Both the position numbers and the translations under genes were made by a program. DNA of 59,853 nt, counting the filler. It is 3 parts of 3 records of this genome, joined end to end, with 100 filler letters (N's around TTAATTAATTAA, not from the genome) between each part and the next. Parts side by side here need not be neighbours in the genome. Positions count along the whole stretch, not along the records: positions 46,506 to 59,853 come from DRR723986_11077; 2 more parts are not named here. One strand, written 5' to 3'. Numbering within the stretch: position 1 is the stretch's first letter; every line of letters starts with the position of its first letter. Positions 18,586 to 59,853 of the stretch are shown here, in pieces. Under the pieces are notes generated by a model. It was not told the DNA's origin and searched no databases. It worked only from the letters and a program-made list of their open reading frames with translations.

Positions 18586-18706
18586 CTAAACTAAATGAAA
18601 ATTAAGAAATACACTTAGTGCTAAACTAAGAAGCAAAACAAGGAGTTGGTATATTTTTAGGGGGAATTATAATACCGGGAAGCTAGAATTCTAACAGATC
18701 AAGCTG

Positions 18707-19519: not shown

Positions 19520-19546
19520 TGATATCAGGGAGTGGAAGGGATTTCT

Positions 19547-20404: not shown

Positions 20405-20487
20405 TCAGTAGTAATTTAATAGGAAAGAGCCTAGGCATAACCGAAGCTACATGATGTACAAATATGTTTTGAATAAGAAGAATTGCC

Positions 20488-20523
20488 ATCCCTGAAAATA
20501 GGGATTTGTCATAATCACCAGTG
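20488..20523 (-). promoter_or_regulatory. Putative NarL/LuxR operator upstream of kinase-murQ-HK operon
   Basis: Minus strand reads cactggtgatt-N7-atccctattttcagggat; near-identical to 21525-21560. Confidence 0.7.
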
Positions 20524-20584
20524 ATTATAATTGGCTAAGTTACCTTGCCTAAAGGTGGTAGAAGAAAAATGAAAAAGTATCCTA

Positions 20585-21220
20585 TTAACTAATCAGACCT
20601 TTTTTGTAGGCATTATTTACTAACTCAGCAGTATTTTTTGCCTTTAACTTATAGAGTAAGTTTTTCCGGTGAGTTTCTACCGTATTCTTACTGATAAAAA
20701 GTTTCTCGCCTATTTCAAGCGTAGTAAGTCCAATAGCAATGCATTCCAACACTTCGGTCTCCCTTCCGGATAGCCGTTCATTTACCTCGTATTTGGAAGA
20801 ATCCTTCAAAAAACTGGTCAATAGGATTTTACTCACTTCCTCACTGACATAGCTCTCACCGCTATGAATTGAGTGAATGGCATCAACTAGATCTTTTTTA
20901 CCGGTATTTTTAAGTATGTAACCACTAGCACCGCTTTTTAGCATATCCGAAATAAAGTGTCGGTCCCTATGCATGGAAAGACCAAGAATTTTAAGTTTCT
21001 TATTTGTTCTACTTAGCTCTTTTGTTGCTTCCACCCCATCCATTTCAGGCATGTTCACATCCATTATCACCAGATCAACCTGATTTTCCTTGCAATGCCG
21101 AATAGCTTCTTTTCCATTACAGGCTTCACCCACTACTTTTATCCCAGGCAGGTCTTTCAACAAGGCCCTTAAACCATCGATGAACATTTGATGGTCATCG
21201 GCTATCAGCACATTAATCAT
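20585..21220 (-). CDS. NarL/LuxR-family response regulator
   Basis: LIADDHQM, DLVIMDVNMP, GYILKN, LSGRETEVL..IGEKLFISKNTVETHRKNL. Confidence 0.93.
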   Translation of the reverse strand: MINVLIADDHQMFIDGLRALLKDLPGIKVVGEACNGKEAIRHCKENQVDLVIMDVNMPEMDGVEATKELSRTNKKLKILGLSMHRDRHFISDMLKSGASGYILKNTGKKDLVDAIHSIHSGESYVSEEVSKILLTSFLKDSSKYEVNERLSGRETEVLECIAIGLTTLEIGEKLFISKNTVETHRKNLLYKLKAKNTAELVNNAYKKGLIS

Positions 21221-21524
21221 AGTGTAAAAATTTAATAGTAAACTCTCTCCTCTACTTCAAGAGACTAATAGTAGTAGGTATTTATTGAATCCGACAACAA
21301 ATTTCCACCAACGGAATTCTCAATTATTCAAGACCCATCTTATCCTTTAAGTGGACTGGAATGCCTAACACTGCGATTTCTTTACTTACAAATTTTGAAT
21401 AAACAGGCCAAAAGCACTTTCACAGTGTCTATTGACCTATTTACGTTTAGTGATGATGAATTCTGTAATGCCTTAGAATGGTATATCATACACTCCATAA
21501 GTTAACTAATCTACCCTTATTTAG

Positions 21525-21560
21525 CACTAGTGATTTATTAATATCCCTGTTTTCAGGGAT
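21525..21560 (+). promoter_or_regulatory. Putative NarL/LuxR operator upstream of the second susC
   Basis: cactagtgatt-N7-atccctgttttcagggat; contains the perfect 7-4-7 inverted repeat ATCCCTG-tttt-CAGGGAT. Confidence 0.7.
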
Positions 21561-21709
21561 TGAATAGGCTCATTTTTTAGAAAGATTTGAACGTGAAATA
21601 ATCGTGGGTTTACAAAAATTGAATTCAAGGAAAAACTTCCACTTGTTTTTACTGCTGTAGTATAACTCCACTTTTAATTCATTAAACACTATTCAACTCA
21701 ATTAATTAA

Positions 21710-24700: not shown

Positions 24701-24970
24701 CAGACCAGATATTTACTTGATTTATCTTACATGAGAATGAAGAATATCACCTTGGGTTACTCCCTTCCTTCTTCGTTGATTTCTAAGATTAGCGTGGATA
24801 AAGTAAGAGTTTATGTATCCGGAGAAAACCTATTTGAGATTGACAAATTAGACCTGCCATTGGATCCTGAAGTGGATTATACTTCTGCAGGAAGTAACGA
24901 CTCGAACACCTTTGGAAGAGTTTACCCATATAGCAGAACCCTGTCATTTGGTCTACAGGTCACCTTTTAA
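21710..24970 (+). CDS. susC: SusC/RagA TonB-dependent transporter
   Basis: EFVVVGYGTQK, VLKDAASSSIYGSRGAWGVILITTKKG, C-terminal YPYSRTLSFGLQVTF. Confidence 0.95.
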   Translation: MFNMKKLLHCSFVTMCFLLFHFQVNAQSLNVTGTISSAEDGISLPGASILVKGTTKGVTSDIDGKYQITVEKGQVLVFSFIGLVSQERMIDVGGTLDIVLEPDAQALYEFVVVGYGTQKRSDLTGAVSSVDTKVLESRPITDVARGLQGSTPGLTITTPSGQIGQNPTIRLRGTVGTLSNSGGAQPLILVDNVEIPNLQLVNPEDIESISVLKDAASSSIYGSRGAWGVILITTKKGKKGEAPKISYSNNFAWATPTVTPTIANAADGAEMAFKALQRTNPSTNVFGVVGMYFDEIGIQKMRDWEAQYGGQNLGNEMVIGRDFEVRDGRLFFYRPWDAGDMFMKNWTPQQKHDLSVAGGSEKTTYRLGVGYLGQNGVLKVNPDEFNRYTADLSVSSQVTDWMEVRGGVLYSNTKFTRPFYFSSETYDPWYYLLRWPKNYPYGTYEGQPFRSAITEVQQAKMNEQNTSLTRLNLGTTITPLKGLSIVANYTFDSQNFHDHQTGGVVSAYNFWSTGANLQNAPYTSASYNRVQYASSWSNRNVGKAFATYEKMFGDHSLKAMVGGDIEAYEYWYHSSQRRDLMDLDRGELDLASGDQFVDGSRNQWSTAGAFSRLNYNYKGKYFLELNGRYDGSSRLSPTERWAFFPSMSAGYVISEESFFEPVSSVISFLKLRGSWGAIGNQNAYLRDIYRIMGSTSSGWLLGANNQLTFGTPGALPSSLTWETVTTLDLGFDARFFKDKFGVSFDWYNRTTSDMHSAGEVLPASYGTSATKQNFGELETKGWELALDYTHGFTNGLNLNATVVLSDYKETITEFADNTSIYSNRPGRVIGDIWGYETDRLFTEDDFVKDGNGELVLDNGKYVLKEGIPSQSLYESGWFYYGPGDVKYKDLNGDGELTFGQNTEEDHGDLKVIGNSTPRYQYGVRLGMDFKGIDLSFFIQGVGKRDYWANGPIMIPGYRPGEAWFSHQLDYWSEDNPDAFYPRPTNALQSNNAKNFLPQTRYLLDLSYMRMKNITLGYSLPSSLISKISVDKVRVYVSGENLFEIDKLDLPLDPEVDYTSAGSNDSNTFGRVYPYSRTLSFGLQVTF

Positions 24971-46405: not shown

Positions 46406-46505
46406 NNNNNNNNNNNNNNNNNNNNNNNNNNNNNNNNNNNNNNNNNNNNTTAATTAATTAANNNNNNNNNNNNNNNNNNNNNNNNNNNNNNNNNNNNNNN
46501 NNNNN
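46406..46505. other. Artificial contig linker
   Basis: N44-TTAATTAATTAA-N44. Confidence 0.98.
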
Positions 46506-46522
46506 TGTTAGCCCTAAGGGCT
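46506..46522. repeat. Palindromic repeat tgttagccc-taa-gggct at the start of contig 3
   Basis: Related copies at 59593-59617 and 59841-59853. Confidence 0.7.
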
Positions 46523-46647
46523 GTGAGCCGAAAATGCACGGGTCTTGAGATTCAAGACCGAGAAACAAATTTTTGAGATTCAATGCAGAAATCTCAAGTC
46601 GCCTGGGACTCTAAACCAGGCACAATTCAACAACGAGGGCTGCCACA

Positions 46648-47109
46648 ATGCCGGCTTTAGGCACTGATCTAAAAGTTTTACCAGGTTTTGCAGCACATGA
46701 TGCCGCCGAAATCGACCTGACTCTGCGCCAGCGGCCTGGACGTGGAAGCATTGTCTCCGCCCCGTCGGAGAACTTTGATCTGGACCTCGTTGCCGGTCGT
46801 GAAAATGTGGCGCAGTCGCTGGTGTTGCGCCTGTTAACGCCGCAAGGATCGCTGGCGGCGCTGGGACACGCCAACTACGGCTCGCGCCTGGGTGAACTGA
46901 TTGGTCGCAATAAAACCACGGCCCTGCGCAACCTGTGCCGCGCCTACATCCTGGAATGTGTAGCTCAGGAGCCGCGTGTGCAAGATTCTGCGATTGAACT
47001 GGCATTTGATCCGCAGAGCGAGACCGCCTCTACTTTTGTTTTTACGCTCGCCGTGCAGCCAATTGACGGTGGCGATCCCCTTGGAATTTCACTGGAGCTG
47101 GGACTATGA
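46648..47109 (+). CDS. GPW/gp25-like baseplate (sheath initiator) protein
   Basis: ENVAQSLVLRLLTPQG...HANYGSRLGELIG...VAQEPRV matches the gp25 pattern. Confidence 0.85.
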   Translation: MPALGTDLKVLPGFAAHDAAEIDLTLRQRPGRGSIVSAPSENFDLDLVAGRENVAQSLVLRLLTPQGSLAALGHANYGSRLGELIGRNKTTALRNLCRAYILECVAQEPRVQDSAIELAFDPQSETASTFVFTLAVQPIDGGDPLGISLELGL

Positions 47110-48830
47110 CGTATACGCCGCGCAATTACGAGCAAATCGTTCGCGACGTTTTGACGACGCTGACCGGGGGAACAGTACGGGAGTCTTTGACCGCACCCGC
47201 AAACCCCGAAGAAGTTTTGGTTCCGACCAAACTGAAAGAACGGCCGGTGCGCCGGATTTCACATCTGGAAGGCACGATTCTCTCAGCTAATGGTGCCGAA
47301 CTGCCGTATCGCTTCACCGCAGCAGACTTTGAATTGATTTCTGCCGATGGTGATGCCGCCAATCCCGACAGCATCCAGTTTCGCGCCGAAGGCCGCAAAC
47401 CGAAACCCGGTTCAACGCTGGTAGTTAACTACTATCCTGTACAGACCGACGCTACGCCGCTGACGGATATCAGTGTCGGTTCGGTTGTGCGTACCGTGCT
47501 GGAGACCATCGCACGTGAACAGGCGACGGCATATTTGAACCTGGAACACATTTACAAGTCAGCCTTTCTGGAAAGTGCCGAAGGACAGTCGCTTGACAAA
47601 GTTGTAGCCCTTGTCGGCGTGCAGCGCATGCAGGCCGGACATCCGGTGGCTAAACTGCGTGTGCAGCGTCGTGAAGGTGTCTCCGGCAGAATTACAGTTC
47701 CAGCGAATACCGCCGTCACCGACGATAACGGTGCGCGTTATATCACCAAAACCAGCACTACGCTGGAAGCCTATGAAAGCACGCGTGATATTTCCGTGCG
47801 CGGCGAGTCCGCCGCAACGGCCGTGGTTGAAGCGGGAAAGTTAACACGCCTTGAAACATTGATCGCCGGAATTTCCGAAGTCACTAATCCGGATGCTTCA
47901 CATAATCTGAACGCTCCGGAGACTGATCCCGATTTGCGTATCCGTACTAAAACGGCACTCAAAGGCAATGTGCGCGGAACGATGGATGCCATGCGTTATG
48001 GCCTGCTGGCCGTGGACGGTGTTAAAGATGTCTCTATCGTCGAAAATCCCAACGGCGTGCCCGGCGAGCTGAGTATCAGCATCGCAAGCACCGGCGATGC
48101 TGCCGACGTACTTCCTTTTGTGCGCCGCCGCGTGGAGGAATTGCGACCCGTTGGAATTCGTGTATTGCCAATTGGAGAAACAGCCAAACGTATTGTCACT
48201 GTTTCGGTTAACCTTATCCTGGCCGGCACGGGAGTGATTGAAAGTGAACTCGAAGCACTTAAACAGGGAGTGCAGGCGCGCCTGAATACCTACTTTGAAT
48301 CAATTGCTGCAGGTGCAATGATTCGGCGTTCGCGCATGTTAACTGCCGCAATGCAGGACGACGCGCTGGCAGACCTGCAAATTTCCCTGGAAGCGCAGGG
48401 TGAAGCTCCGGTAGAAGAACTCCAGCTGGCCGACGGTGAAACACTTGAGATAGCCGGAATCGTGTTTGGATCAATCGCGAGTGAATCCGCGCCCGACACG
48501 GCGGTCACGTCCAAAGTCAGTGCTTTCATTCCTGTTATGCTGGAGGCCGGAACAACAAGTGCCGACGCTGAAGCGACACTCAAAACGGCGTACGAAGCAT
48601 TTTTGGTGACGCGCTCAGCGCAGAGTCCACTGGCGGTGGATGGATTAATGACTGCCCTGCGCGACGACACACGTTATACGATTCTGCGCGCAGAAGTAAG
48701 CGTGACGGTGGAAACACATGACGGGCGTTTTGCACAGCTGCGCGACGGACTGGGCGTTTATACGCCAATCACAGATGAAACTCTGCTAGCCGAAGCGTTT
48801 AACATTGACATCCGCGAAGAGGGGGCCTGA
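47106..48830 (+). CDS. Baseplate J/gp47-like wedge protein
   Basis: GSVVRTVLE, AEGQSLDKVVALVGVQR, ETDPDLRIR, GTMDAM..AVDGV, RPVGIRV; ATGA overlap with the gp25-like gene. Confidence 0.88.
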   Translation: MTYTPRNYEQIVRDVLTTLTGGTVRESLTAPANPEEVLVPTKLKERPVRRISHLEGTILSANGAELPYRFTAADFELISADGDAANPDSIQFRAEGRKPKPGSTLVVNYYPVQTDATPLTDISVGSVVRTVLETIAREQATAYLNLEHIYKSAFLESAEGQSLDKVVALVGVQRMQAGHPVAKLRVQRREGVSGRITVPANTAVTDDNGARYITKTSTTLEAYESTRDISVRGESAATAVVEAGKLTRLETLIAGISEVTNPDASHNLNAPETDPDLRIRTKTALKGNVRGTMDAMRYGLLAVDGVKDVSIVENPNGVPGELSISIASTGDAADVLPFVRRRVEELRPVGIRVLPIGETAKRIVTVSVNLILAGTGVIESELEALKQGVQARLNTYFESIAAGAMIRRSRMLTAAMQDDALADLQISLEAQGEAPVEELQLADGETLEIAGIVFGSIASESAPDTAVTSKVSAFIPVMLEAGTTSADAEATLKTAYEAFLVTRSAQSPLAVDGLMTALRDDTRYTILRAEVSVTVETHDGRFAQLRDGLGVYTPITDETLLAEAFNIDIREEGA

Positions 48831-48831
48831 C

Positions 48832-50253
48832 GTGGCGCATTTAAACGACATGTTGGCGCGTCTCCCGCAGCTTTACCGCGAAGGTGAAGTGGTTGCCGGT
48901 CTTGTGGGGCAGGCGGCTACCCAGATTGAGATTTTGGACGAAGACGCACGTGAAGTTCAGCGCGCACATTGGTTTAACCAGGCCCTGGAAATTGAAGAAG
49001 TTGAGAAGCTGGCCGCCGTGCTGGATATTCCGCACGAGAATTGGCAGGTCCTGGGCGAATACCGCGCCTGGGTACACGCTTTGCGTGATGCGCTTCTTAA
49101 ACACGGAGCTGTTACCGTTAAAGCCGCCGTATTTTTTGTGGCGAATTACACAAATGCGTTTCAGCGTGCGCTGGACTTCAGAACGGTTTTACCATTATCT
49201 GTTGATCCATCGGTTTGGTACAGATTTCCAACACCAATTGACAGCGACCCGCCGGCGGCGGCCGATGAGATGTTTAGTCCATCTGCTTGGCGTGATGCGC
49301 TGCATCGCAATCAGGCGGCACTGGTTGAAAACCCGCCGATTCCGCGTATTCAGCGGGCACCGAGCGAAGGTGGCATAGAGCCGCTGCATCGATTTGTTGT
49401 TAAAAATCGCGGACTGGACAGTAGTTACTCCGGCGCACTTATGCTCGGTTTGCCATCCGGTCCTGAATATGCGCCGGCGCTGATCAACTTAACAAGTGGC
49501 GATGGCATCGTGTATCTGGGTGCCGTGCCGCCGGGAGCGCGTCTCTGGATTCGCGCAGATGAAAATGGCGTGGCTTCAGCTTTGCTGGAAGGTGAAGACG
49601 TTAGCGATCGCTTGCGCTCGATTGCCGGAGTGACGCCCGGAACAGCCTGGTCAGTTGAAGACGCTCAGTCTCCGGCGCATGCGCTGAAAATGCTGCCGGG
49701 TGATAACGATATCTGGTTCCTGCCGATCGCACATTTTGATGTGCCCGGCCTTGACCGATTTTTGCTGGCTCTGGCCGACTTAACATTAGAGCAGGGGCGT
49801 TGGGATACGACCAAGTTTGACCACTCCCTGTTTTATCAGGATCCGGCCGCACGCCTGCACATTAGCTGGTCAGAAACACGGCCGGGTTGTTATCGGATCG
49901 ATTTACCGGCAGGCTGGATGACAAGTCCCGCGCCGCGCGGTGAGTCGGAAGTACAAGATGAAAATTCTTCACCAGGTGCGCTGCATGCTGCACTTGCGGA
50001 ATCACTGGCTGAGCGTCAGCGACTGGTTTTCTCGTTGAACGAAGGTGTGCAGCGCCTGCGCCCGGCGGGCGTGGAAGCCGCAGTTGTTTTACACCCGTTT
50101 AAGGAAGTCCAGGGTAACAGCGAACGAATGACGGGTTACCTGCCGCGCCGTATAAGCGCTCCAGGGCCTGGAGGTGCCGACCGTTTGATCGACAGCGAAG
50201 GTTTGTTTGGTGTCAGCGAATTTAACAATTCAATTTTTGATGGCGGAGACTGA
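48832..50253 (+). CDS. Baseplate wedge gpI/gp48-like protein with inserted beta domain
   Basis: LPQLYR..EKLAAVLDI..EYRAWV..GAVT at the N-terminus and LRPAGV near the C-terminus; follows gpJ; GTG start after a purine-rich RBS. Confidence 0.6.
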   Translation: MAHLNDMLARLPQLYREGEVVAGLVGQAATQIEILDEDAREVQRAHWFNQALEIEEVEKLAAVLDIPHENWQVLGEYRAWVHALRDALLKHGAVTVKAAVFFVANYTNAFQRALDFRTVLPLSVDPSVWYRFPTPIDSDPPAAADEMFSPSAWRDALHRNQAALVENPPIPRIQRAPSEGGIEPLHRFVVKNRGLDSSYSGALMLGLPSGPEYAPALINLTSGDGIVYLGAVPPGARLWIRADENGVASALLEGEDVSDRLRSIAGVTPGTAWSVEDAQSPAHALKMLPGDNDIWFLPIAHFDVPGLDRFLLALADLTLEQGRWDTTKFDHSLFYQDPAARLHISWSETRPGCYRIDLPAGWMTSPAPRGESEVQDENSSPGALHAALAESLAERQRLVFSLNEGVQRLRPAGVEAAVVLHPFKEVQGNSERMTGYLPRRISAPGPGGADRLIDSEGLFGVSEFNNSIFDGGD

Positions 50254-50255
50254 TA

Positions 50256-50756
50256 ATGCGAGCAACCGTGCACATTGATTTGCGCGACGCCGAAGGGAAA
50301 ATCCTCGGCAGCCGTTTTGCGCGTAACAGCGTAATGCGCGGCGGCGCCACGCTTATTGCCAATCTTTTCACCGGTGCTGGTGCGCCGAGCTGGAAGATGG
50401 GAGTAGGTGTGAACGACGCACCGGAACCGGATACGTTCGAAAGTACCGGACTAACTGCGCCCGGCGAAGCCGACGATGCTTTGGTCGGCGGAACTGAAGT
50501 GGATATTCCGGCCGAGAATTTTAGCGTGACGCTGGACGAAGAGCGGCGCGTGGCACTGGTCACGGTGCGCGGTACAATGCCGCACACTGCGGCGGTCGGC
50601 AAAGTCCGCGAGGCGGGCCTGATTGCCAACACCGGTGGTGGGGACGTACTCTACAATCGCGTCACCTTTGCGCCGATTGACAAGCGCGACAACCATGAAT
50701 TGACACTCTTCTGGGAAGTGACCTTCCCATACGGAGATTTGCATGCCTTGTTCTGA
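50256..50756 (+). CDS. Stand-alone tail-fibre attachment/collar-like domain protein
   Basis: NSVMRGG..LIA, MGVG, VREAGL, LYNRVTF..IDK...LTLFWEVTF resembles the N-terminal domain of myophage tail fibres. Confidence 0.6.
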   Translation: MRATVHIDLRDAEGKILGSRFARNSVMRGGATLIANLFTGAGAPSWKMGVGVNDAPEPDTFESTGLTAPGEADDALVGGTEVDIPAENFSVTLDEERRVALVTVRGTMPHTAAVGKVREAGLIANTGGGDVLYNRVTFAPIDKRDNHELTLFWEVTFPYGDLHALF

Positions 50757-50910
50757 TGACGCATCGCAACATTGCGCCACTGCCTGATTTCAGGAAGGAC
50801 AAGTGACTGCGGTGGCAGAGGATTGAGACTATCTCAATTACTTCCAGTTGCTGACACGGTGACAAACAAAATTGGCTTTAATGCAAGGCAAACTCATAAA
50901 GGAATTCACT

Positions 50911-51876
50911 ATGAAATCCGCATTCCAAATACAGCTATCCGGTTATGCGCGCGCCAATCGCGACGCGTCCGTGATATTAACAAATGAATCTACCGGCAAA
51001 AAGTTAACACGTAAACCCTTCCTTGACGGACGTTTGGTAGTGCGTGACCTGGACCCAGGCTTCTATAATATGGAAGTGCGCCACCCCAATTTATTCCGTC
51101 CGGTAGATTTGCGCCGTGTGCGTCTGTTTCCGCAGCCGCAGCCCACGCGTATCAGCATTCCAGTGCCTGAGGACCTGTTTGTAGACAGCCCCATCGAAGA
51201 TATTCCAGACGCGAATCTGGGGCCTGTGCAGGAGAGTTCCAAGGCGGTGGCCGAGCAAATTTCGAGTATCGGGACCAAAAGCCCTGGTGAGGTAATCCGC
51301 GCAGCTGATTTTAATCTGTTAACAGGTGCAATTGGCGATTTGGCGGGTGCCGTGCTGGAGTTAACCAATCTGGTTTCGCCGCGTGGACATGATCATCCGG
51401 AGATCGCCGTTAAAATTTCTGAAGTTCAGGATAACCTGCGTCGTTTTGCCGAAGCATATGGCCAAAGTTTGCTTGAACTACGCCGTGAAATTGAACTGCA
51501 AAACCTGAAAGGCCAGGCGGAATCGGCACTGGATGAAGCCGGTGCGAAAGACGATGACTACGCCGATATTCGCGGCCGCATCACCGACCTGGTTAAGTCT
51601 TCACAAAGCAACACCGCCGTGTTTACGAATAAACTGGCAAAGTTTGGCACCGTGATGCAAACCAAGATTGCGCAGCTGGCCGAACAGTCGAACGACCCCG
51701 TACAGTATATGCAGAAGCCGGTTGTACAGGAACTGCAGGCCTCAGCCCAGCAATATTCGCTGGCCGGAACGCTGGTGCAGCCCGAAGCCGAGTTACGGAC
51801 TTATCAGCGTACTACTACGACGTCCGGCGGCCGCAAATTCTCAAATATCTTCACCCAGAAAGTTAATAAACTCTGA
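50911..51876 (+). CDS. Putative fibre/accessory protein: beta-sandwich, GxxIxAxxxNxL...HxH module, coiled coil
   Basis: RBS aagga before the ATG at 50911; LDPGFYNMEVRHP resembles a carboxypeptidase-regulatory-like domain; PGEVIRAADFNLL...GHDH. Confidence 0.55.
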   Translation: MKSAFQIQLSGYARANRDASVILTNESTGKKLTRKPFLDGRLVVRDLDPGFYNMEVRHPNLFRPVDLRRVRLFPQPQPTRISIPVPEDLFVDSPIEDIPDANLGPVQESSKAVAEQISSIGTKSPGEVIRAADFNLLTGAIGDLAGAVLELTNLVSPRGHDHPEIAVKISEVQDNLRRFAEAYGQSLLELRREIELQNLKGQAESALDEAGAKDDDYADIRGRITDLVKSSQSNTAVFTNKLAKFGTVMQTKIAQLAEQSNDPVQYMQKPVVQELQASAQQYSLAGTLVQPEAELRTYQRTTTTSGGRKFSNIFTQKVNKL

Positions 51877-51887
51877 CGAGGCTCAGC

Positions 51888-53579
51888 ATGCCAAACGCCA
51901 GCGAACTAACGCGCCTGACGGCCCTGCTTAACCGTTTAATTCCCCTCGCAGATGTTAAGCGTGGAGACTTAATTACAGCCGACAACTGGAACCAGTTGGT
52001 GGGGACACTCATTGAGGTCTCACAGATTGTCCTGGCTGAAGGTGCCAACAACAGCGTACTGCCACACGAACACCAGGACGAAGTTAAACTGGCATGGCTG
52101 GAACCACAGCTACGCCAGTTGATACAGGCCGGTCCACTTAGTGACCCAGCCAGTAAATCGGCATTAACGAATGTAGAGCGTGCCGTTGAACGGCTGCGCG
52201 AGCGCCTGATTCAAACAGATCAGGATTTAAGCAGCCTGCGTAAGCGCCTGGACGAGGTCCGCACACTTGATCTACAGCGAGAAAATGAGGTGATTGGCAT
52301 CCGCCGTTCGGTTGACGGCCTGGCCGATGCACGCAAGGACGTCTTTGATCTGCGCGCCTCTCTCGACACCATCAAAACTGGAGTGGCCGTTGCCCTTGAA
52401 GCCAGTGACAAGTTTACGGTTGACAACGAAATCGTAGATTTTACCGTGCTGCTCGACCGTGTTAACTCAGTTGAGGAACTCTTCCAAAACCTGAAGTTAG
52501 CTGATGGGACGCTGCTTGATGCCAAAGTCTTCGACAATCGTCTGGCCGAGTTTGCCAATAAATTTATTGACGAAGATGAGTTGCGCGAAGCGCTCGAAGG
52601 CCGCAGCATCGAAATACCTGAAAGTGCGATATCCGGCCTGCGGGATGAGTTGGAAGGCAGTGTGCTGGCGGCCTCGCGCGAGGAATGGACGACGGCAATT
52701 AACAATCTGGACGGCAGAATTCGCGATTGGGCCGATGCCGAAATTGCACAAAGAGTTGCGCCGATTGATAAACGTTCGCGCAACAACCAGACGGCGGTCA
52801 ACGAAGCTATTGGACCGACCAGTGGCTTTAACCGCCAACAACTGGACTATATGGTGAAATTCTTTGGTGAACAGTTTGGCGATGAGTTCACACCTCCGAA
52901 ACGACTCCTGGGGGTAACTCGGGTAGGCGGATTAAGCGAAGAACCTGTCGTTGCTGGAAGCCGCACAGCATCAATTGCCGAAGATGAACTGCACAAAACA
53001 ATTGCCGAAGCTACGCGGGTACAGGTAGAGGAAATGCTCCCGGCCGCCGTAAGCGCCGCCGTTAATACTGCAGTCGCAGTTTCAGTAAGTAACGCCGTAG
53101 AAACTAGCGTTAAAGCCGCCGTTGACTCAGCGCTCAACAGTCGTCTAAATTCGGCGGTAAATGCAGCTGTCAGCTCCTCGGTTAATACTGCCGTTAACGC
53201 CGCGATCAGCAATTCACTTAATAAAGCAGTGAATTCGGCAGTTGAGAGATCAGTGGGCATGGCCGTTGAAAATGCCATGCAGGACAGCATGAAAACTATG
53301 TCCGGACAAATGCGCGAGTTGGTCCAGGTCGAAGTCAAACGCCAGGTGGCCGAAGGTGGCTCCGAGGCACGCAATGACAGCCGCAGTCGCGAGGTTCGGC
53401 GCGATGACCTGACTAAAATCAGTGGTCTTGGTGATTCGCTGGTCAAACGACTCAACACATCCGGCATCACAAGTTTTGAACAGTTGGCCGAATCCGACCC
53501 GCGTGAAATTGCCAAAATACTACGCCGTTCTCTCATAGATTCACAACGAATCGTGCGCGACGCAAAACGCCTGATATAG
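51888..53579 (+). CDS. Putative coiled-coil fibre protein with 4-residue repeats and C-terminal helix-hairpin-helix domain
   Basis: RGDLITADNWNQL...PHEH; long coiled coil; (xAVx)n tract; DDLTKISGLGDSLVKRLNTSGITSFEQLA. Confidence 0.65.
   Translation: MPNASELTRLTALLNRLIPLADVKRGDLITADNWNQLVGTLIEVSQIVLAEGANNSVLPHEHQDEVKLAWLEPQLRQLIQAGPLSDPASKSALTNVERAVERLRERLIQTDQDLSSLRKRLDEVRTLDLQRENEVIGIRRSVDGLADARKDVFDLRASLDTIKTGVAVALEASDKFTVDNEIVDFTVLLDRVNSVEELFQNLKLADGTLLDAKVFDNRLAEFANKFIDEDELREALEGRSIEIPESAISGLRDELEGSVLAASREEWTTAINNLDGRIRDWADAEIAQRVAPIDKRSRNNQTAVNEAIGPTSGFNRQQLDYMVKFFGEQFGDEFTPPKRLLGVTRVGGLSEEPVVAGSRTASIAEDELHKTIAEATRVQVEEMLPAAVSAAVNTAVAVSVSNAVETSVKAAVDSALNSRLNSAVNAAVSSSVNTAVNAAISNSLNKAVNSAVERSVGMAVENAMQDSMKTMSGQMRELVQVEVKRQVAEGGSEARNDSRSREVRRDDLTKISGLGDSLVKRLNTSGITSFEQLAESDPREIAKILRRSLIDSQRIVRDAKRLI
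53043..53295 (+). repeat. Intragenic 12-nt/4-aa periodic repeat, about 20 units
   Basis: AAVS AAVN TAVA VSVS NAVE TSVK AAVD SALN SRLN SAVN AAVS SSVN TAVN AAIS NSLN KAVN SAVE RSVG MAVE NAMQ. Confidence 0.85.
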
Positions 53580-53715
53580 GCGATGGTGTGACACCAATGC
53601 GGTTAACAACAGTCACCATCCATTCCGCTAATTAACACATGCGGCATTCCTGAATGAAACCTCAGCGGAATGATGTTAAACGCTCCTATCCAGCGAGCAA
53701 ATGTAAGGCAGCAGT

Positions 53716-54651
53716 ATGATTTCCGAATTTCAGACACGTCTGGCCGAAGTCCTCGGTGCACGCCTTCCCGGTCCGTTTACCGGACGTGTGCATGTGGCGC
53801 CCTTGCCGGAAGGACTGGTTGACCCGGACACGCCCGCACTGCGCATCGGGGTTGCTGCTGCCGCTCCGCGTGCCACCGGTTTTGGTGGTGGCGCATTTAT
53901 GCAGGTTGTTAAGGGCGCAAGTTCACCGCGGCGAGTATTGGCCTTAACATGTCAGGTTCGTGTTGAAGTTTTTCCACTTTTGTCGGGCAGCGCTTCCGAC
54001 CGTGTTAACCAAATGCGATTGTTGGAGGCCGCAGCTTTTGAATTGGGTGCGGCTGATATTCGCGATGGTGCCGCATTTGACGACCAGGGCACACCCGATC
54101 CCGGTTTTTTGGTGCATAAATTGCACTTAACAGATATGTCTGCTCCCTTTGGCGCGCAAGTTGAAACGACTGACCCTGCGCCGCGCATGGACTTAACATT
54201 GGAACTGGAAGGCTGGTTCTGGCCGGTTGGTCAGCCGGGCGTTACCGGTGTTGAGATCCAGGAAACGCGCATTCGTGGTGTAGCGCTGCCGGTGGCACTC
54301 GAAGCTGCCGAAACCTTATTTGCCGGTGGCGCTTCGGTTGCATACACCTTGCGTGTTGGATCGTTGGCACAGCCCCTGGCAGCCAGTCAACCCGGGCCGG
54401 CACTTGGCGCGGACTTCCAAAGTATTGTGATTGGTTTACGTGGCGGTGGCAGTTTAAGTTCGGTGGATGCACTGCCAGACAGCACAGCTGAGAAACTGTT
54501 AATTAACGTTTCTGCCGGTACTTGCAGCTTTTTGCTTGTCCCGCCGGCGGAGGCCGGGAAGTTGGACCTGCAAGTGTCACTTGACAACGGCCAGAGTGAG
54601 GCCGGCTTGCAGTTTGCAGAGTTCAGGCTCACCGTAGAGGAGGGCAGCTGA
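53716..54651 (+). CDS. Hypothetical protein, possibly tail terminator/cap-like (Pvc16/DUF4255-like)
   Basis: N-terminal helix, proline loop, strand pattern and helix (QMRLLEAAAFEL) resemble tail terminators; context only otherwise. Confidence 0.4.
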   Translation: MISEFQTRLAEVLGARLPGPFTGRVHVAPLPEGLVDPDTPALRIGVAAAAPRATGFGGGAFMQVVKGASSPRRVLALTCQVRVEVFPLLSGSASDRVNQMRLLEAAAFELGAADIRDGAAFDDQGTPDPGFLVHKLHLTDMSAPFGAQVETTDPAPRMDLTLELEGWFWPVGQPGVTGVEIQETRIRGVALPVALEAAETLFAGGASVAYTLRVGSLAQPLAASQPGPALGADFQSIVIGLRGGGSLSSVDALPDSTAEKLLINVSAGTCSFLLVPPAEAGKLDLQVSLDNGQSEAGLQFAEFRLTVEEGS

Positions 54652-56309
54652 TGAATGCCCAGTCTCTGACAAATGAATTGACCTCGGCACTTGAAGCCGC
54701 TGTGGTTGACATGAACTCATGGTTCCCGACGGCACGTGAACTTGAGCAGATGTCCTGGGTGCGCGCCACTTTGCCGGTTGTTATGCAGACGATCACCTTT
54801 AGTGATGCAGCGCATACTTTTGGTGTGAACTGGGCTGCAGCCGCAGGTGCCACGCGCGTAGAAATTGACGCAACAAATACTGCCGGATCGGCAGCCGACC
54901 CCGCGCCAAACCTTGTCAAGATTGGGCCTTCGGGCATTCGTATGTCGCTGGACAACTTGCAGCTTAACAACTCGAGCCCACATCAGTTAATTTCGAATGC
55001 AAAGCCGACGCGTTTTGTGAGTCTGCGCCTGCAAAACTTACGCCGCGAAGACGATGCGGACAAAGAGCTCAAGTCGGACAGTGACCTGAGTGGCGGATTG
55101 CGTCTGGTGCTCTCGCAGAAAATTCCAAATGGCGAGTGGGTGCCGGTGTACACGGTACCGGCGATTCCCGCAGATGGAGTTATGCCCGCCATGTTTAGTG
55201 GTGCCAGTTTCAGGGACCGTGTTGTGCGCTTTCCAGCGATACAGGCAAGTGAAATTCGTCTGAGCCTGGTGACGGGTTCGCGCCCGGAGAGTTTCCAGAT
55301 GAAAACCGCGCTGCTGGATGGCGTTAGCGGGACGGAGGAGGTCCTGCCCGCAGATTTGGAATTAACGGCGCCGTCGGGACAGGTCCAATGGGCTTTTCCC
55401 GGAGAAATGCCGGCTGGCACGGCTTCGAACTACGTGGACCTGCGCAATGCCGTCAGCCTGGCTTTAAACGAAGATTTAACATCAGCTCTGGAGGAGCAAC
55501 GCGCACTTAACGTGCAGTTCGCTCTTAAGGGCAAAAGCGGTACAAGTGCCGCTTTTAGTTTTGGGCAGCCGCGTGGCTCCCTGCTGCGCGAACACAGAGG
55601 CATGCAGCGTTTTGAATTGCGTGGGGAAGAGACCATGCTGGACTTTGGTGACGCCTTGGACGCAAGCGCACCGCAGGAGGTATTTGCGGATTTGGCCGTT
55701 AAATACCTGGGAATGAAAGTCCTGGCCGTGCACTCGGATTTTCCGCTTGAGCCTGCTGAGCAAGTCGCCGGACAAGTGGTGGGAACATCCGATGTACTGC
55801 GAATTTTGGAAGAAGGTGCGCTGGCAGGGCGAGACGTCGCACAGCTGGCACTGGTAGGGCGCGCACCGGTAGACTGTGAAGTTGACGTTCAGCTGTTTAA
55901 GTACCAGGCCGGCGTGCTGGGAGATCCGCTGGGGATGCCTGCACGGCTGGAATTGACGGCTTCCGAAGACATTGGAACACACTGGCTGGACATCGCGGAG
56001 CTCGAAGACTGGGAAGGAGTTGTGGCTGTGCGCGCACATGCGCTCTCCGGCCGCTTTCTGTGGGCCGCACGCGAACAGCCGCTCTTGCGGATTGTAGTGC
56101 GCGATCCCGATCCGGGAGGTGCGATGTTGTATTTGCGCAACCGCGGAATCACCGCCAATCAATTTGGGATGGCCATTGAAGACGTCCAGCGGGACTGGCG
56201 CACCCAGAATTTTACGAGTCAGGTCTTCAGAAGCGCAATGCCGCAACTGTACAGTGATCTGTTTTTGACTGTGGATTTCACCGACCTGACCTTGAGGTAT
56301 CGCCGATGA
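54651..56309 (+). CDS. Hypothetical beta-rich protein (552 aa)
   Basis: Long ORF coupled to both neighbours (TGATG and ATGA overlaps); RBS gaggaggg. Confidence 0.7.
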   Translation: MNAQSLTNELTSALEAAVVDMNSWFPTARELEQMSWVRATLPVVMQTITFSDAAHTFGVNWAAAAGATRVEIDATNTAGSAADPAPNLVKIGPSGIRMSLDNLQLNNSSPHQLISNAKPTRFVSLRLQNLRREDDADKELKSDSDLSGGLRLVLSQKIPNGEWVPVYTVPAIPADGVMPAMFSGASFRDRVVRFPAIQASEIRLSLVTGSRPESFQMKTALLDGVSGTEEVLPADLELTAPSGQVQWAFPGEMPAGTASNYVDLRNAVSLALNEDLTSALEEQRALNVQFALKGKSGTSAAFSFGQPRGSLLREHRGMQRFELRGEETMLDFGDALDASAPQEVFADLAVKYLGMKVLAVHSDFPLEPAEQVAGQVVGTSDVLRILEEGALAGRDVAQLALVGRAPVDCEVDVQLFKYQAGVLGDPLGMPARLELTASEDIGTHWLDIAELEDWEGVVAVRAHALSGRFLWAAREQPLLRIVVRDPDPGGAMLYLRNRGITANQFGMAIEDVQRDWRTQNFTSQVFRSAMPQLYSDLFLTVDFTDLTLRYRR

Positions 56310-59300
56310 GTTTGCTCGATGACTTAAAAGGATTAAACATCGACGCCGTATTGACGGCGCGTGTTAACATTACGGCGAGCACGACGGATGCAGACGTTCA
56401 GGCCGTTGTGGACGGCGGATCCCTGACGCAGGTTCTGGGATCACTGGGCACGGCTATCGATGCAATTGTTAAAGGTGTCGATAATCCGGCTGCGCTCCTG
56501 GAGCCGCTCATGCAGGCCTTCCTGGCCGTGTTTGACGAGATTAAACCTGATGACTTTCCGCTGGATGATTACCGCGGAGCCATTGAAGCCGGCGCGCGTA
56601 TTCTGCTGGACCTTGCCGGAAATATTGGCGGCGACGTTTCAGAGATGAACTTTCCGGGAGGCAAACTCGGGGATCTGATGTCGCAGGCCGTCGGCTCGGT
56701 TTCGCGTTATGCGGAAGTTCAGCTGGATGGCGTCGGCAATATCAAAAGTGTCTTTGAATCGCTTGAAAACGGTGCACCTGGTGACCCTGCCGCTCTGGCT
56801 GAAATGATTGTAAGCCACCTGCTGCCATTTGACGTTAACGCTTTGAAGAGCGTGCGCGGTGGAGTCGATAGTGTCCTGAGCGGCATTCGCGATGTGAATA
56901 TCAGCAGCGATGCGGTGCAGACACTGGTTGTGGCATTCGACGGCGTCGCCATCGCCGCTGAGTCCAAAGACCGCGCCAGGCTGGATGCGGCGCTAACCGA
57001 TCTGGAACGGATACGCCAGAATACGCTGGTGGAATTGGAACGCGCGTTGGGGACGTTCAGCACTACTGTAGATGCAATTGACATTGGGCAATACCTGGGA
57101 GTAATTCAGCAGGGGGCCGATCTGATAAAAAGCGGCGAACGTGGAATCATCGATTTCCTGGAGCAGATGCGCCGCAATATGGCCTATGGGCGGCAGTTGA
57201 TTGAAAACGCCGATTCGGCGCAGTTGGCGGCCGCGGCGAATGATTTGTTTAATTATCTGGAAAACTTCCTGCAGGAAACGATTCAGAAGCCGATTGACCA
57301 GCAGGTTGAAAATCTCAAGAACTGGCTGCGCGGGCTACTCGCCAATATTCCGCTGCGCGAGTATCGCGCTAAACTGACGACTTTCATTCTGAGTATTGCC
57401 AAGGCAATCGAAGATGCTGACCTGGGGCAGTATGCCACGCAGGCGCGCGCCTTCCTGGATGAAATCGAAAATGTGATTGACAATTTTGATTTGGCGGCCG
57501 ACATCCAGTCTGCCGTGCAATCAGTTAATGCAACTCTTGACGGCTTTCTTAACACCGTTGGCGGTGAATTAACAAATATTGTTGGGGCAATCGAAGGTGT
57601 GGCTGCAGAGGCCGCCGGAATATTAACAACTGCGGCCGAGCACCTGGAGAAATTCCAGCAGACGGTTAACGAATTGACCGAGCTCTTAAACAGCCTTGAC
57701 GTTGAGCAGGCGGCTGAGCAGGTCGTGGCCAAACTTGCTGAATTGCGTCAGACGGCTGAGACTCTGCTTTCTGCCGCGCCACTGCCCGACGCCCTGCGAC
57801 CGGTGGTGGAACAGTTGGTAGCCGAGCTGGACGGCATTAATCTTGACGAAGTATTTGAGCCCGTGCACTCAGCGGTTGCGGACTTTGAGATTCCTGCCGA
57901 AACACTTGACCCGCTCTATGAAATCATCGAGGAAGCGGCCAAACTGATTGAAAATCTGATCACACCGGAGCTTATCAGTTCGATTGATGCTGAGATTAAG
58001 AAGATTACCGACGAGATTCGCAAGCTGGACCCGGCGGTGCTGCTGGCGGATCTGGACCAGTTTGTGCTGGATGCAGCGCAGTTCGTGCGCGAGCTGGATC
58101 CGCGCCCTCTCGTGGCTGAGATTCGCGAACCATATGATAAACTGCTTGAACTCTTTGACGCGGCACATCCGAATCAACTCCTCTCACCCGTATTTGACGC
58201 TTATGACTCTTTGCTGGGCGGTATAGAGCTGCCCGACAGTGATGGAGCCATACAGTCGATGAGTTCCGCTGTGTCTTCGGCGGGGCAGCAGGTCTCAAAT
58301 GCAATGACGCAGCCGATTCGGAGCATGGCGCCCGATGGTGCGATTGAAACGGTTGAAGACCCTGAGAACCCACCGGAGGAGCAAACGCAGGAGCCACCGA
58401 ACGTTGAAGAATTCAGACCCGGCGATGTCGTCCGCATGCTCGGCTGGGTGCCACAAAAACTGCGTGAAGGCCTTGAGGCTCTGAACGAAAGTGGCGCCGG
58501 TGACGCGGTCCGCGCAGTTGACAAATATTGCGGCGGACTGGCGCGCGATTTGCGCGCCGTGCAGGCCGAATTGTGGGCTGCCGAGGAACGCCTGGTCGAC
58601 CAGCTTGACATGCTGGTTCTGCCGCTGCGCGAAGCCCAGTTTAAGGCGCAAATTGCGATTCGCGTAAACTTTTCGAGCGATATCGTCGATCTGGAAATGA
58701 ATGCGATGATGCTTGCCGTAGCCAAGGCTGGACCGGGCGAGATGCGCCGATCTCTGGCTGTGGCGGCCGACGACACGCGTGAGCGTCTGCGCGTTCTGGT
58801 ACGCGGTAGTGGTGGTTCGCTGGGAGCGCTGCTCGAGCGTACGGCTACAGCACTTGAGGGCTGTTCGCTGGCGCAAATTGGCGATAATCTGGAGGGTTTG
58901 TTAAACGCACTGGATCCGGAACCGATAGCGAAGGAATTGGACGATCTGGTAGCCGCCGTGCTGCGTAAGGCGCCAGAGGTGGCCGCCGCAGTGGATGACG
59001 CGGTGCGCGTCAGTATTCAGCGTTTGCTGGACTTGTTAAAAGTGTACAATCCGCTCAACCAGGCCGAGAAGTTTTTGAGCGTGTTAGACGTTTTGCGCGA
59101 AGAGATAGATCTGCTCAATCCACGGCGCCTGGCCGCCGAGCTGGGAGAAGTCCATGCGGCAATTCGCACGACCATTAGCGCCTACGATCCTGGCGTCTTT
59201 GCGGAAGAAGTTTATGACGTGGTTGAGGCTGTAGCCAACAAACTCGAGAGTTTAACAATTGCGAATCTGGGGCTGGACTTAAGTTTCCTGGATACGTTGA

Positions 59301-59566
59301 TTGCGAATATCGAAGACCTCTCGCCGGCGCAAATTCTCTCGACGCTGGACACCGGTCTTGACGCTGTAGCTGAACGGATGCAGGCTCTGAATCTTAATGA
59401 ATTACTGGCAGCAATTAATGAGCTGCCTTCGGAAGTTGTACGCGCATTTGAGATTGCAGCAGAAGGCATTATCGCTGAAATCAGGAAACTGTTGGAAGCC
59501 ATAAAATACGTCAGCGCTGAGGGCAGCGCTTCGGTGTCTGCGAGTGCGTCATTGTCGGTTGGATGA
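56306..59566 (+). CDS. Large acidic all-alpha repeat protein (tape-measure-like candidate)
   Basis: 1086 aa of amphipathic helices broken by [LY][DN]P motifs; terminal gene of the cluster. Confidence 0.6.
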   Translation: MSLLDDLKGLNIDAVLTARVNITASTTDADVQAVVDGGSLTQVLGSLGTAIDAIVKGVDNPAALLEPLMQAFLAVFDEIKPDDFPLDDYRGAIEAGARILLDLAGNIGGDVSEMNFPGGKLGDLMSQAVGSVSRYAEVQLDGVGNIKSVFESLENGAPGDPAALAEMIVSHLLPFDVNALKSVRGGVDSVLSGIRDVNISSDAVQTLVVAFDGVAIAAESKDRARLDAALTDLERIRQNTLVELERALGTFSTTVDAIDIGQYLGVIQQGADLIKSGERGIIDFLEQMRRNMAYGRQLIENADSAQLAAAANDLFNYLENFLQETIQKPIDQQVENLKNWLRGLLANIPLREYRAKLTTFILSIAKAIEDADLGQYATQARAFLDEIENVIDNFDLAADIQSAVQSVNATLDGFLNTVGGELTNIVGAIEGVAAEAAGILTTAAEHLEKFQQTVNELTELLNSLDVEQAAEQVVAKLAELRQTAETLLSAAPLPDALRPVVEQLVAELDGINLDEVFEPVHSAVADFEIPAETLDPLYEIIEEAAKLIENLITPELISSIDAEIKKITDEIRKLDPAVLLADLDQFVLDAAQFVRELDPRPLVAEIREPYDKLLELFDAAHPNQLLSPVFDAYDSLLGGIELPDSDGAIQSMSSAVSSAGQQVSNAMTQPIRSMAPDGAIETVEDPENPPEEQTQEPPNVEEFRPGDVVRMLGWVPQKLREGLEALNESGAGDAVRAVDKYCGGLARDLRAVQAELWAAEERLVDQLDMLVLPLREAQFKAQIAIRVNFSSDIVDLEMNAMMLAVAKAGPGEMRRSLAVAADDTRERLRVLVRGSGGSLGALLERTATALEGCSLAQIGDNLEGLLNALDPEPIAKELDDLVAAVLRKAPEVAAAVDDAVRVSIQRLLDLLKVYNPLNQAEKFLSVLDVLREEIDLLNPRRLAAELGEVHAAIRTTISAYDPGVFAEEVYDVVEAVANKLESLTIANLGLDLSFLDTLIANIEDLSPAQILSTLDTGLDAVAERMQALNLNELLAAINELPSEVVRAFEIAAEGIIAEIRKLLEAIKYVSAEGSASVSASASLSVG

Positions 59567-59592
59567 TGTTGTTGGGTCTCAAGCTGGGCTCA

Positions 59593-59617
59593 AGCTGTTA
59601 GCCTAAGGCTAACAGCT
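59593..59617. repeat. Perfect palindrome agctgttagcc-taa-ggctaacagct after the last gene (REP-like or terminator)
   Basis: 11-bp stem, 3-nt loop; same core as both contig ends. Confidence 0.7.
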
Positions 59618-59840
59618 CAGCGTTTGGCAAACTTTAGAAGCCGCTGAGTTTTGGGATCGATAGAATGGCGTTGATCTGCGTCTGGATTCCGAATAACACT
59701 CGGTATTGCTTTCTAAATTATTGAGAATTCGACAATTGCAAGGCAAAATGGTTTTGCGGTTGGTGGTTTGGAGATTGAGTGGTGTGACTTTGGGTTTATC
59801 GGTTGAAGAATTGAAAACTCAATTTTTTACAACCGGGTCG

Positions 59841-59853
59841 AGCCCTTAGGGCT
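59841..59853. repeat. agcccttagggct, reverse complement of 46510-46522
   Basis: 13/13 match. Confidence 0.7.

Follow-up and report, generated by a model that had tools for sequence, protein, structure and literature searches.

Contractile injection systems (CISs) act in microbial warfare and development, and they are being mined as programmable tools for protein delivery. In the known contractile tails, proteins related to gp25 and J are components of the baseplate wedge. Afp-type systems carry a tape-measure gene after the fibre gene. Tailocins, headless like the systems described here, are recent derivatives of one phage lineage inside a genus and bring with them lysis genes and SOS-type regulator genes. 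The subject of this article is a set of nine genes in a stretch of assembled DNA 59,853 nucleotides long, filler included, which we call the window. We think that these genes probably make up the distal half of a 16- to 17-gene operon for a headless, phage-tail-like contractile injection particle.

Two kinds of described system come close. The first comprises contractile injection systems of the extracellular kind (eCISs), such as Afp, PVC and AlgoCIS. In the available part of Chen et al. 2019 (PMC6899500), their core set consists of Afp1/5, Afp2/3/4, Afp7, Afp8, Afp9, Afp11, Afp15 and Afp16, with Afp15 and VgrG both included. In the available text of Li 2025, clusters that possess fibre and tape measure yet lack the ATPase were discarded as 'phage or pyocin'. 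Surveys keyed in this way to an Afp15-like ATPase, as these excerpts describe them, discard clusters that lack it, and the cluster described here is of neither phage nor pyocin type by the genes in view. The second is the CIS of the Streptomyces davawensis group, the closest described system by layout and distribution, to judge from the portion of Nagakubo et al. 2024 available to us (PMC11126660). Its genes run sheath, tube, a large and partly disordered protein, tube initiator, spike and PAAR tip, and its hosts are monoderm and diderm bacteria of distant phyla. The main text of that paper nowhere uses the word 'ATPase' (PMC11126660).

How does our locus compare? Homology, fold or synteny establishes a gp25-like and a J-like protein, two fibre-like proteins with an HxH motif, a cap or terminator, a tape-measure-like protein and, in relatives, the genes upstream. 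On sequence comparison, the whole has the look of a CIS lineage that has spread horizontally and has yet to be described. Literature searches by term found no description of the cluster, which shows only that those terms found none.

The nine genes and their missing front half

The window is made of two contigs, left (1-46405) and right (46507-59853), held together by an artificial joint. The right contig is 13.3 kb long, and its only genes are nine open reading frames (ORFs) on the + strand:

46648-47109, + strand: w1, 153 residues, gp25-like baseplate wedge protein or sheath initiator (PHROG 975)
47106-48830, + strand: w2, 574 residues, baseplate J / gp47 / gp6-like wedge protein (PHROG 6)
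48805-50253, + strand: w3, 482 residues as listed, putative wedge protein in the gpI/gp7/Afp12 position (position, weak leads)
50256-50756, + strand: w4, 166 residues, small conserved stand-alone protein (PHROG 5417, unknown function)
50872-51876, + strand: w5, 334 residues as listed, fibre-like, with a DWN-HxH module (alignment)
51888-53579, + strand: w6, 563 residues, fibre-like, with a DWN-HxH module and a C-terminal helix-hairpin-helix (HhH) domain (alignment, HHH_5)
53716-54651, + strand: w7, 311 residues, tail terminator or cap with a C-terminal beta-sandwich (predicted fold)
54651-56309, + strand: w8, 552 residues, all-beta, several sandwich domains (predicted fold)
56306-59566, + strand: w9, 1086 residues, tape-measure-like (PHROG 305)

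The genes point the same way and are mostly coupled, as a first-pass annotation, made from the letters alone, had reported. Our ORF calls returned the same coordinates; six of the eight junctions overlap or are no more than 11 nt apart, and gaps of more than 100 nt occur at two places, w4/w5 and w6/w7. Two of the listed starts are probably too early, since homologues begin to align with w3 from an internal ATG at 48850 and with w5 from one at 50911. Six of the nine proteins match a PHROG family. In Pfam, NCBIfam and PHROGs, none of the nine matches a capsid, portal, terminase, lysis or integrase family, and none matches a sheath, tube, VgrG, PAAR or AAA ATPase family. Both sets of absences had been read correctly at first pass.

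Two wedge genes open the module. The first, w1, matches PHROG 975 at 2.7e-17; Pfam's GPW_gp25 (1.7e-5, 24.9 bits, against a cut-off of 27.2) and Sheath_initiator (1.4e-4) are both under cut-off. It was found by tblastn in 79 of the 80 related loci described below. The second, w2, matches PHROG 6 at 3.9e-39 and has no Pfam match itself. It has 403 homologues, typically 48-59% identical, most with PF04865 and many annotated gp47/JayE. Identity stays at about 50% across phyla and reaches 79% in the loci L001 and L002. The names gp25-like and gpJ-like, given to w1 and w2 from the outset, can therefore stay.

The third name, gpI-like, fared less well. The position of w3 is conserved across the related loci (tblastn), it matches PHROG 1160, 'baseplate protein', weakly (E=0.0038), and its Atlas leads include Tail_P2_I, P1 gp16 and Baseplate_wedge at 0.75-0.77. 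Position and weak leads point to a wedge role. The label itself is not established: a relevant Pfam match was found in 0/32 members of the w3 family, and a profile search of PDB sequences gave no match. Profile comparison with Mu gp48 and P2 gpI gave nothing either, by a method too insensitive for the purpose (J reached a probability of only 4% against Mu gp47 and 41% against P2 J). The best Atlas row for w3 (0.91, 175/256 language-model features) is an unnamed family of about 370 residues, mostly from Archaea (Nitrososphaerota), a lead that related baseplates may exist there.

The front half of the operon is visible in relatives. One genome per species was scanned; there were 144 pattern matches, of which 85 were confirmed and 80 kept, and these 80 loci span 12 phyla. 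With reference proteins as tblastn queries, all loci show one order on one strand: sheath, tube, two further genes that we call u3 and u4, hub, spike, gp25, J and then w3 to w9. Sheath and tube were found in 62 of the 80, on the same strand and upstream of gp25, and the 18 loci without them all begin less than 4.2 kb upstream of J, which puts these genes out of reach. The u4, hub and spike genes reach into some of the shorter loci, and were found in 68, 73 and 75 of the 80, respectively. The first-pass annotation had placed the sheath, tube and spike genes beyond the contig break. This comparison with relatives, rather than any recovery of the missing contig, supports that placement.

A single gene encodes the sheath in the relatives, with a length of about 565 or about 770 residues; its product matches PHROG 279 (1.9e-27) and, in Pfam, Phage_sheath_1C. 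Position and size are the grounds for assigning the tube, along with a weak match to PHROG 290. Hub (about 340 residues, weak Phage_GPD and Mu Gp44-like matches) and spike (about 220 residues, Phage_base_V, gpV-like) are separate, adjacent genes. Weak DUF6046, DNA_circ_N and Dit-like matches, with no LysM match, suggest that u4 is a tube-initiator-like protein. The u3 protein is poorly conserved and ranges from 346 to 581 residues in 26 loci; in the L001 protein, Pro, Ala and Gly abound in the middle stretch, which by eye appears disordered. None of the four u3 proteins tested (L001, L004, L036 and L040) has a Pfam match, DUF4157 included.

Between spike and gp25 sits a PAAR-sized ORF of about 132 residues (73 of 75 loci), and PAAR_motif scored above its cut-off in seven of seven such ORFs tested. 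Two Phytomonospora loci, L033 and L034, have about 100 nt from spike to gp25 and no PAAR-sized ORF. The spacer from PAAR to gp25 is 95 nt in L001. The right contig of the window begins 141 nt before gp25, and the last part of that sequence resembles the L001 spacer by eye, so the assembly break falls in the PAAR-gp25 spacer, probably at a repeat.

The relatives split deeply into two clades. In the first, to which the window belongs and which makes up 47 rows of the J tree, the sheath measures about 565 residues; in the second, with 30 rows, it measures about 760-780. In the long-sheath clade, the cap, beta-sandwich and tape-measure genes are more diverged, and size-matched ORFs stand in the same order in the three loci inspected (3/3).

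Fibre-like proteins, cap and candidate ruler

The small protein w4 had been described as a stand-alone fibre-collar domain. Stand-alone it nearly always is, with only one longer homologue. The collar part of the description finds no support: w4 matches PHROG 5417, of unknown function, at 2.1e-14, and has no Collar or other Pfam match and no PDB match. Our guess is a fibre adaptor.

The two genes that follow encode the HxH proteins picked out at first pass, and the HxH reading is borne out. In w5, an N-terminal region (with a weak beta-sandwich Pfam match at residues 30-75) leads into a DWN-HxH module and then a variable region, a putative coiled coil at first pass. In w6, the module is N-terminal and is followed by a long variable region and a C-terminal HhH domain (HHH_5 at 1.1e-6, residues 506-545). 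The homologous module shared by the two proteins is 56 residues long and ends in HxH (hhalign probability 98.1%, E=1.1e-13). Its HxH residues are invariant in the 31 aligned w5 sequences and the 33 aligned w6 sequences; the invariant positions are G172, H173, H175 and E177 in w5 and W34, H60, H62 and W70 in w6. Past the module, both proteins vary strongly. The HhH domain of w6 is present in only 8 of the 33 aligned homologues, and the others end differently, which in sequence terms is the typical pattern of exchangeable receptor-binding tips. A w5 profile against PDB sequences gave nothing beyond coiled-coil noise.

The seventh protein has no sequence-level match (Pfam, PDB profile search), and its fold is more informative. 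An AlphaFold2 model of w7 (predicted local distance difference test score, pLDDT, 84.9) was compared with the PDB by Foldseek. Its N-terminal domain matched phage neck and terminator chains, the PlPVC1 cap (9qgn_A) and the pyocin R2 collar (6u5f_A), at probability 1.0 and with template-modelling (TM) scores on the target of 0.31-0.47. The predicted fold therefore supports a tail terminator or cap like Afp16, Pvc16 and the pyocin collar, and the 'possible cap' of the first-pass annotation is strengthened, by fold alone.

Between cap and tape measure lies w8, a chain of beta-sandwich domains in its AlphaFold2 model (pLDDT 89.2). Foldseek against the PDB and BFVD gave only generic multi-domain matches with TM no higher than 0.22, many of them phage (minor) tail proteins. 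The Atlas leads are weak (F5/F8-type-C, reelin), and a w8 profile against PDB sequences gave nothing beyond coiled-coil noise. A receptor-binding or decoration protein is our guess.

The last gene of the contig encodes a long helical protein, w9, which its profiles make tape-measure-like. It matches PHROG 305, 'tape measure', at 1.7e-13, and among 22 members of its family PHROG 305 is matched by 12, PHROG 1272 by nine and PHROG 4200 by seven. The family is large, with 862 representatives at E<=1e-3 and, at E<=1e-30, no fewer than 202 diverged ones (50%-identity). Its length hardly moves: 143 full-length members range from 1044 to 1140 residues, with a median of 1084 and a standard deviation of 15. 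Because its length is fixed, its family matches tape-measure profiles and u3 varies 1.7-fold in length, w9 is the likelier length ruler of the two on these sequence grounds; u3 may have another part, as plug, chaperone or cargo. At the usual 1.5 Å or so for each residue of a tape measure, w9 would correspond to a tail of about 160 nm and u3 to one of 50-90 nm. In one locus (L063, a metagenome-assembled genome, MAG, of Ilumatobacteraceae; 18664-21770), the tape-measure-like gene is spread over at least two frames, possibly through a frameshift or a sequencing error.

The last five genes had been judged by eye to be unlike Afp13-15. That judgement needs amending, as the module does hold functional counterparts of Afp16 (the cap, by fold) and of Afp14 (the tape measure, by PHROG profile and constant length).

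Flanks, spread and kinship

Upstream of the sheath there is little that the loci have in common. Across 53 loci, with 2-4 kb of upstream sequence each, no ORF family is shared by more than three, and among the 116 upstream ORFs of at least 140 residues none matches a family of capsid, portal, terminase or lysis proteins. A transposase, an HNH nuclease and a marginal integrase occur once each; the rest are metabolic, transport and regulatory genes. Holin, endolysin and spanin matches are absent from the cluster and from its upstream flanks. The term 'headless' in the first-pass annotation agrees with this lack of any conserved head module.

Some of the regulatory genes are worth a closer look. 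In three Acidobacteriota loci, the sheath is immediately preceded, on its own strand, by a sigma-54 enhancer-binding activator (L017 1630-2988, L021 1558-3006, L029 1473-2771). In two loci from elsewhere, that place is taken by a BTAD-type activator (L008 2148-3113, a Chloroflexia MAG; L046 2179-2949, a Mycobacteriaceae MAG). Such neighbours hint at host-controlled expression.

The J tree has 77 rows (four loci with short aligned segments were excluded) and covers 12 phyla, with 26 label changes against a minimum of 11. On these alignments the pattern is one of vertical runs inside groups together with transfers between phyla. The sisters of the window J are two MAGs, one of Hyphomicrobiales and one unclassified, at 79% identity; the next relatives of this J come from Ignavibacteria, Alphaproteobacteria and Kapaibacteriota. 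Carriers are monoderm as well as diderm, Actinomycetota and Chloroflexota included. The guanine plus cytosine (GC) content of the cluster exceeds that of its upstream flank in 51 of the 53 loci, by 4.9 points on average and 11.6 at most; in L001 and Syntrophus buswellii (L040), for example, it rises from 51% in the flank to 62-63% in the cluster. The excess fits an island gained by transfer.

Where, then, do the genes come from? The front half follows the tail order of phage Mu (NC_000929): sheath, tube, X, a gp43-like gene, a gp44-like hub, a gp45-like spike, gp46 (gp25-like), gp47 (J), the next wedge gene and fibres. Like Mu and P2, the cluster encodes hub and spike separately. Add to this the PHROG matches of six window proteins and a GC content above that of the flanks, and one could take the module for the tail of a (defective) Mu-like or other myovirus prophage, its head genes elsewhere. 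We regard this as very improbable. Unlike Mu and P2, the cluster has no head, packaging, lysis or integration genes nearby (upstream flanks and cluster), and unrelated cellular genes lie upstream in the 53 loci, with one marginal integrase and one transposase the only exceptions of note. It carries a PAAR gene, a cap after the fibres and a tape-measure-like gene at the far end of the operon, and no chaperone gene was recognised between its tube and u3. Identity of about 50% combined with strict synteny over 12 phyla also speaks against a prophage. So do the phage genomes themselves: in a collection of 50,697 phage records, the best match reaches about 32% identity, over a third of J, and the sheath has no match. 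In sequence terms, the cluster's behaviour is not that of a prophage but that of a GC-rich island, acquired by horizontal transfer and regulated by the host. Among the tailocins, pyocin R2 shares the headless contractile tail, the fibres, the lack of an ATPase and a collar fold that matches w7. The present cluster differs in being conserved over 12 phyla, in having no lysis gene in view and in the variety of host regulators upstream.

The comparison with eCISs turns largely on an ATPase. No AAA+ ATPase family matches any of 16 gene products (the nine of the window, those upstream in L001, and representatives from other loci), a range that ends at the start of a 17th gene; two flanks carry AAA+ genes of an unrelated, housekeeping kind. 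The reach beyond w9 in the relatives is 15-547 nt. All six loci with at least 100 nt there have a further + strand gene that begins within about 70 nt of w9 and carries a conserved N-terminal motif, F-x-(I/L)-P-G-(T/S):

L005, 21617 onward, + strand: start of the 17th gene
L031, 12966 onward, + strand: start of the 17th gene
L032, from about 21590 onward, + strand: start of the 17th gene
L036, 21181-21705, + strand: start of the 17th gene
L040, 21631 onward, + strand: start of the 17th gene
L044, 21640 onward, + strand: start of the 17th gene

In L036, where 175 residues of the 17th protein are visible, searches of Pfam, NCBIfam and the PDB gave no match, and the idea, formed by eye, of a YD-repeat-like protein was dropped on that account. 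The 17th gene is absent from the last 287 nt of the window.

With the eCISs, our cluster has in common a headless machine of sheath, tube and baseplate (known here from genes alone, the sheath and tube from those of relatives), a PAAR tip and transfer across phyla. Its gp25, J and wedge-position genes are followed by fibre genes, and a long tape-measure-like gene comes after the fibres; among the window genes, the eCIS features are gp25-like (Afp9) and J (Afp11) by PHROG and the cap (Afp16) by fold. This distal order, together with the cap, recalls Afp9-16. It would accommodate an ordinary Afp/PVC-type eCIS whose ATPase and other core genes lie outside the stretch covered, and the gene content past gene 17 does fall outside that range. 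We give this reading very little credence, as little as the prophage. The 16 genes hold no AAA+ match; hub and spike are separate, whereas an eCIS has a fused VgrG (Afp8); and one tube gene is recognised, with only the weak matches listed above for u4. The order differs too, since the front half begins with the sheath, as in Mu, and the cap precedes the tape measure with an all-beta protein between them. The definitions of Chen 2019 and Li 2025, in the parts available, require an ATPase, and with no ATPase seen and hub and spike separate the cluster fails the Afp/PVC-type definition. For the same reason, to go by those parts, this family would be filtered out of eCIS surveys. 'Atypical', as the first-pass annotation put it, is thus a fair word for a cluster with no AAA+ ATPase in 16 genes, a separate hub and spike and a front half in Mu order.

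The sheath has no sequence-level similarity to plasmid-borne systems. In a collection of 72,556 plasmid records the cluster has no close relative, the sheath has no tblastn match at E<=1e-3, and no match of J or the sheath is among the tblastn matches listed. The plasmid pADAP, which carries afp, is presumably in that collection. Nor does the cluster resemble a type VI secretion system (T6SS). Neither the membrane complex (TssJLM) nor TssA, ClpV or the two-part sheath TssB/C was found among the 16 genes; the sheath, unlike that of a T6SS, is a single gene, and carriers include monoderm Actinomycetota.

There remains the question of which cell the machine acts upon. One candidate is a cytoplasmic or envelope-attached system acting on its producer (cell death, development or DNA release), in the manner of Streptomyces CIS-Sc or S. 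davawensis, instead of being released as a weapon. Neither the nine genes of the window, nor the seven lying upstream in L001, nor the 116 flank ORFs include a lysis cassette. Hosts are monoderm as well as diderm, with Actinomycetota and Chloroflexota among them, and host-type regulators sit directly upstream (the sigma-54 activators of L017, L021 and L029; the BTAD proteins of L008 and L046). In its available description (PMC11126660), the S. davawensis group also has the same layout of sheath, tube, X, tube initiator, spike and PAAR, and the same spread across phyla. Even so, we consider a system of this kind rather unlikely. Two fibre-like proteins with locus-variable C-terminal ends and a beta-sandwich protein look like parts for recognising a target. 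The S. davawensis protein upstream of the baseplate, as described in the part of the paper available (PMC11126660), runs to about 2,060 residues, carries DUF4157 as well as a nuclease and is encoded by the largest gene in its cluster, which ends with a peptidoglycan-binding protein. Here the same slot is filled by the much shorter u3, without a Pfam match in four of four, and it is at the opposite end of the cluster that the largest gene lies. The 11 species listed for the S. davawensis group do not occur among our 80 loci, and none of five genera that carry the present family (taken from the loci or from w9 matches) occurs in the supplements of Nagakubo et al. 2024 (PMC11126660). The lack of shared species, and of J or sheath matches among those listed for the plasmid collection, are indirect signs that the two groups are distinct.

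We return, then, to a headless contractile particle as the probable product of the operon. If it works as its parts suggest, wedges of gp25, J and w3 would assemble round the hub and the PAAR-tipped spike. The sheath would polymerise on gp25, w9 would set the length of the tube, and w7 would close its far end. Fibres whose C-terminal ends differ between loci would bind the target, with w4 and w8 as accessory or binding parts. Rearrangement of the baseplate would then make the sheath contract and drive the spike into the target.

Several observations count against this account. No particle has been seen, and the system is known from genes alone. The window has no sheath, tube, hub or spike, and the complete machine is put together from relatives that are at most 79% identical. 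The gp25 match of w1 is under its Pfam cut-off, the window J has no Pfam match of its own, and w3, w4 and w8 are without secure assignment. The ruler has its own difficulties: a w9 profile against the PDB gave only coiled-coil noise, helical composition may contribute to the tape-measure PHROG matches, and the tape-measure (or related) gene of known contractile phages and of the S. davawensis system occupies the u3 position, not that of w9. Only the first 25-175 codons of the 17th gene are covered, and an ATPase, lysis genes or effectors may lie further downstream. Finally, a GC gap of 16 points to the adjoining contig casts doubt on the host of the cluster.

A bolder proposal, which we hold tentatively, is that these loci form a separate, phylum-spanning class of CIS. 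Such a class would have no AAA+ ATPase, a split hub and spike with a PAAR tip, an operon-terminal ruler fixed at about 1,084 residues and two paralogous DWN-HxH fibres with exchangeable tips (one of them HhH), along with w4, w8 and host regulators. If it is real, current eCIS surveys miss it by design, through the discarding of ATPase-less clusters. And if particles are made, they would represent a large unexamined branch of the CISs, with a fibre architecture of its own, a candidate fixed-length ruler and carriers that are already in culture.

The contig and its ends

The contig break noted at first pass is plain to see, in the N runs at about 46406-46506 and in the step in GC from 38.4% on the left contig to 54.7% on the right. 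Third-codon GC changes with it, from 0.29-0.39 to 0.53-0.64. The features outside the nine genes are these:

about 46406-46506, no strand: artificial, non-biological joint; N runs around TTAATTAATTAA, an N / six-frame-stop spacer
46510-46522, + strand: 13-nt near-palindrome at the start of the right contig; its reverse complement, at 59841-59853, ends the contig
59567-59853, no strand: non-coding contig tail, GC 45%, which holds the 17-nt palindrome and the terminal 13-mer
59597-59613, no strand: 17-nt palindrome 3' of the last gene (palindrome scan)

The left contig looks like Bacteroidota chromosome because it carries two SusC/SusD pairs, FecR with an extracytoplasmic function (ECF) sigma factor and Por_Secre_tail proteins, the last with a type IX secretion sorting domain. 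The 16-point gap in GC between the contigs is greater than any gap between cluster and flank among the 53 relatives. The right contig may be mis-binned or may have been transferred very recently; both are possible. Probably the nine-gene module does not come from the Bacteroidota-type genome to which it is joined, and its doubtful membership bears on any claim about that organism. A tube-like tblastn match at 23402-23548 (34% over 50 residues, E=0.003) was set aside as chance, as it lies inside a SusC-type TonB-dependent receptor gene (21710-24970).

No RNA gene was found in the window by Rfam and tRNA scans, and promoter and terminator scans of the window stayed at the level of shuffled sequence. 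A circular element was considered for the right contig and rejected, because its ends have only the inverted 13-mer in common. That 13-mer has two matches in the whole window, both at right-contig ends and in inverted orientation, a number reached in none of 100 shuffles, and it is probably a dispersed repeat where the assembly broke. Together, the 13-nt and 17-nt palindromes look like dispersed palindromic repeats that caused the assembly breaks.

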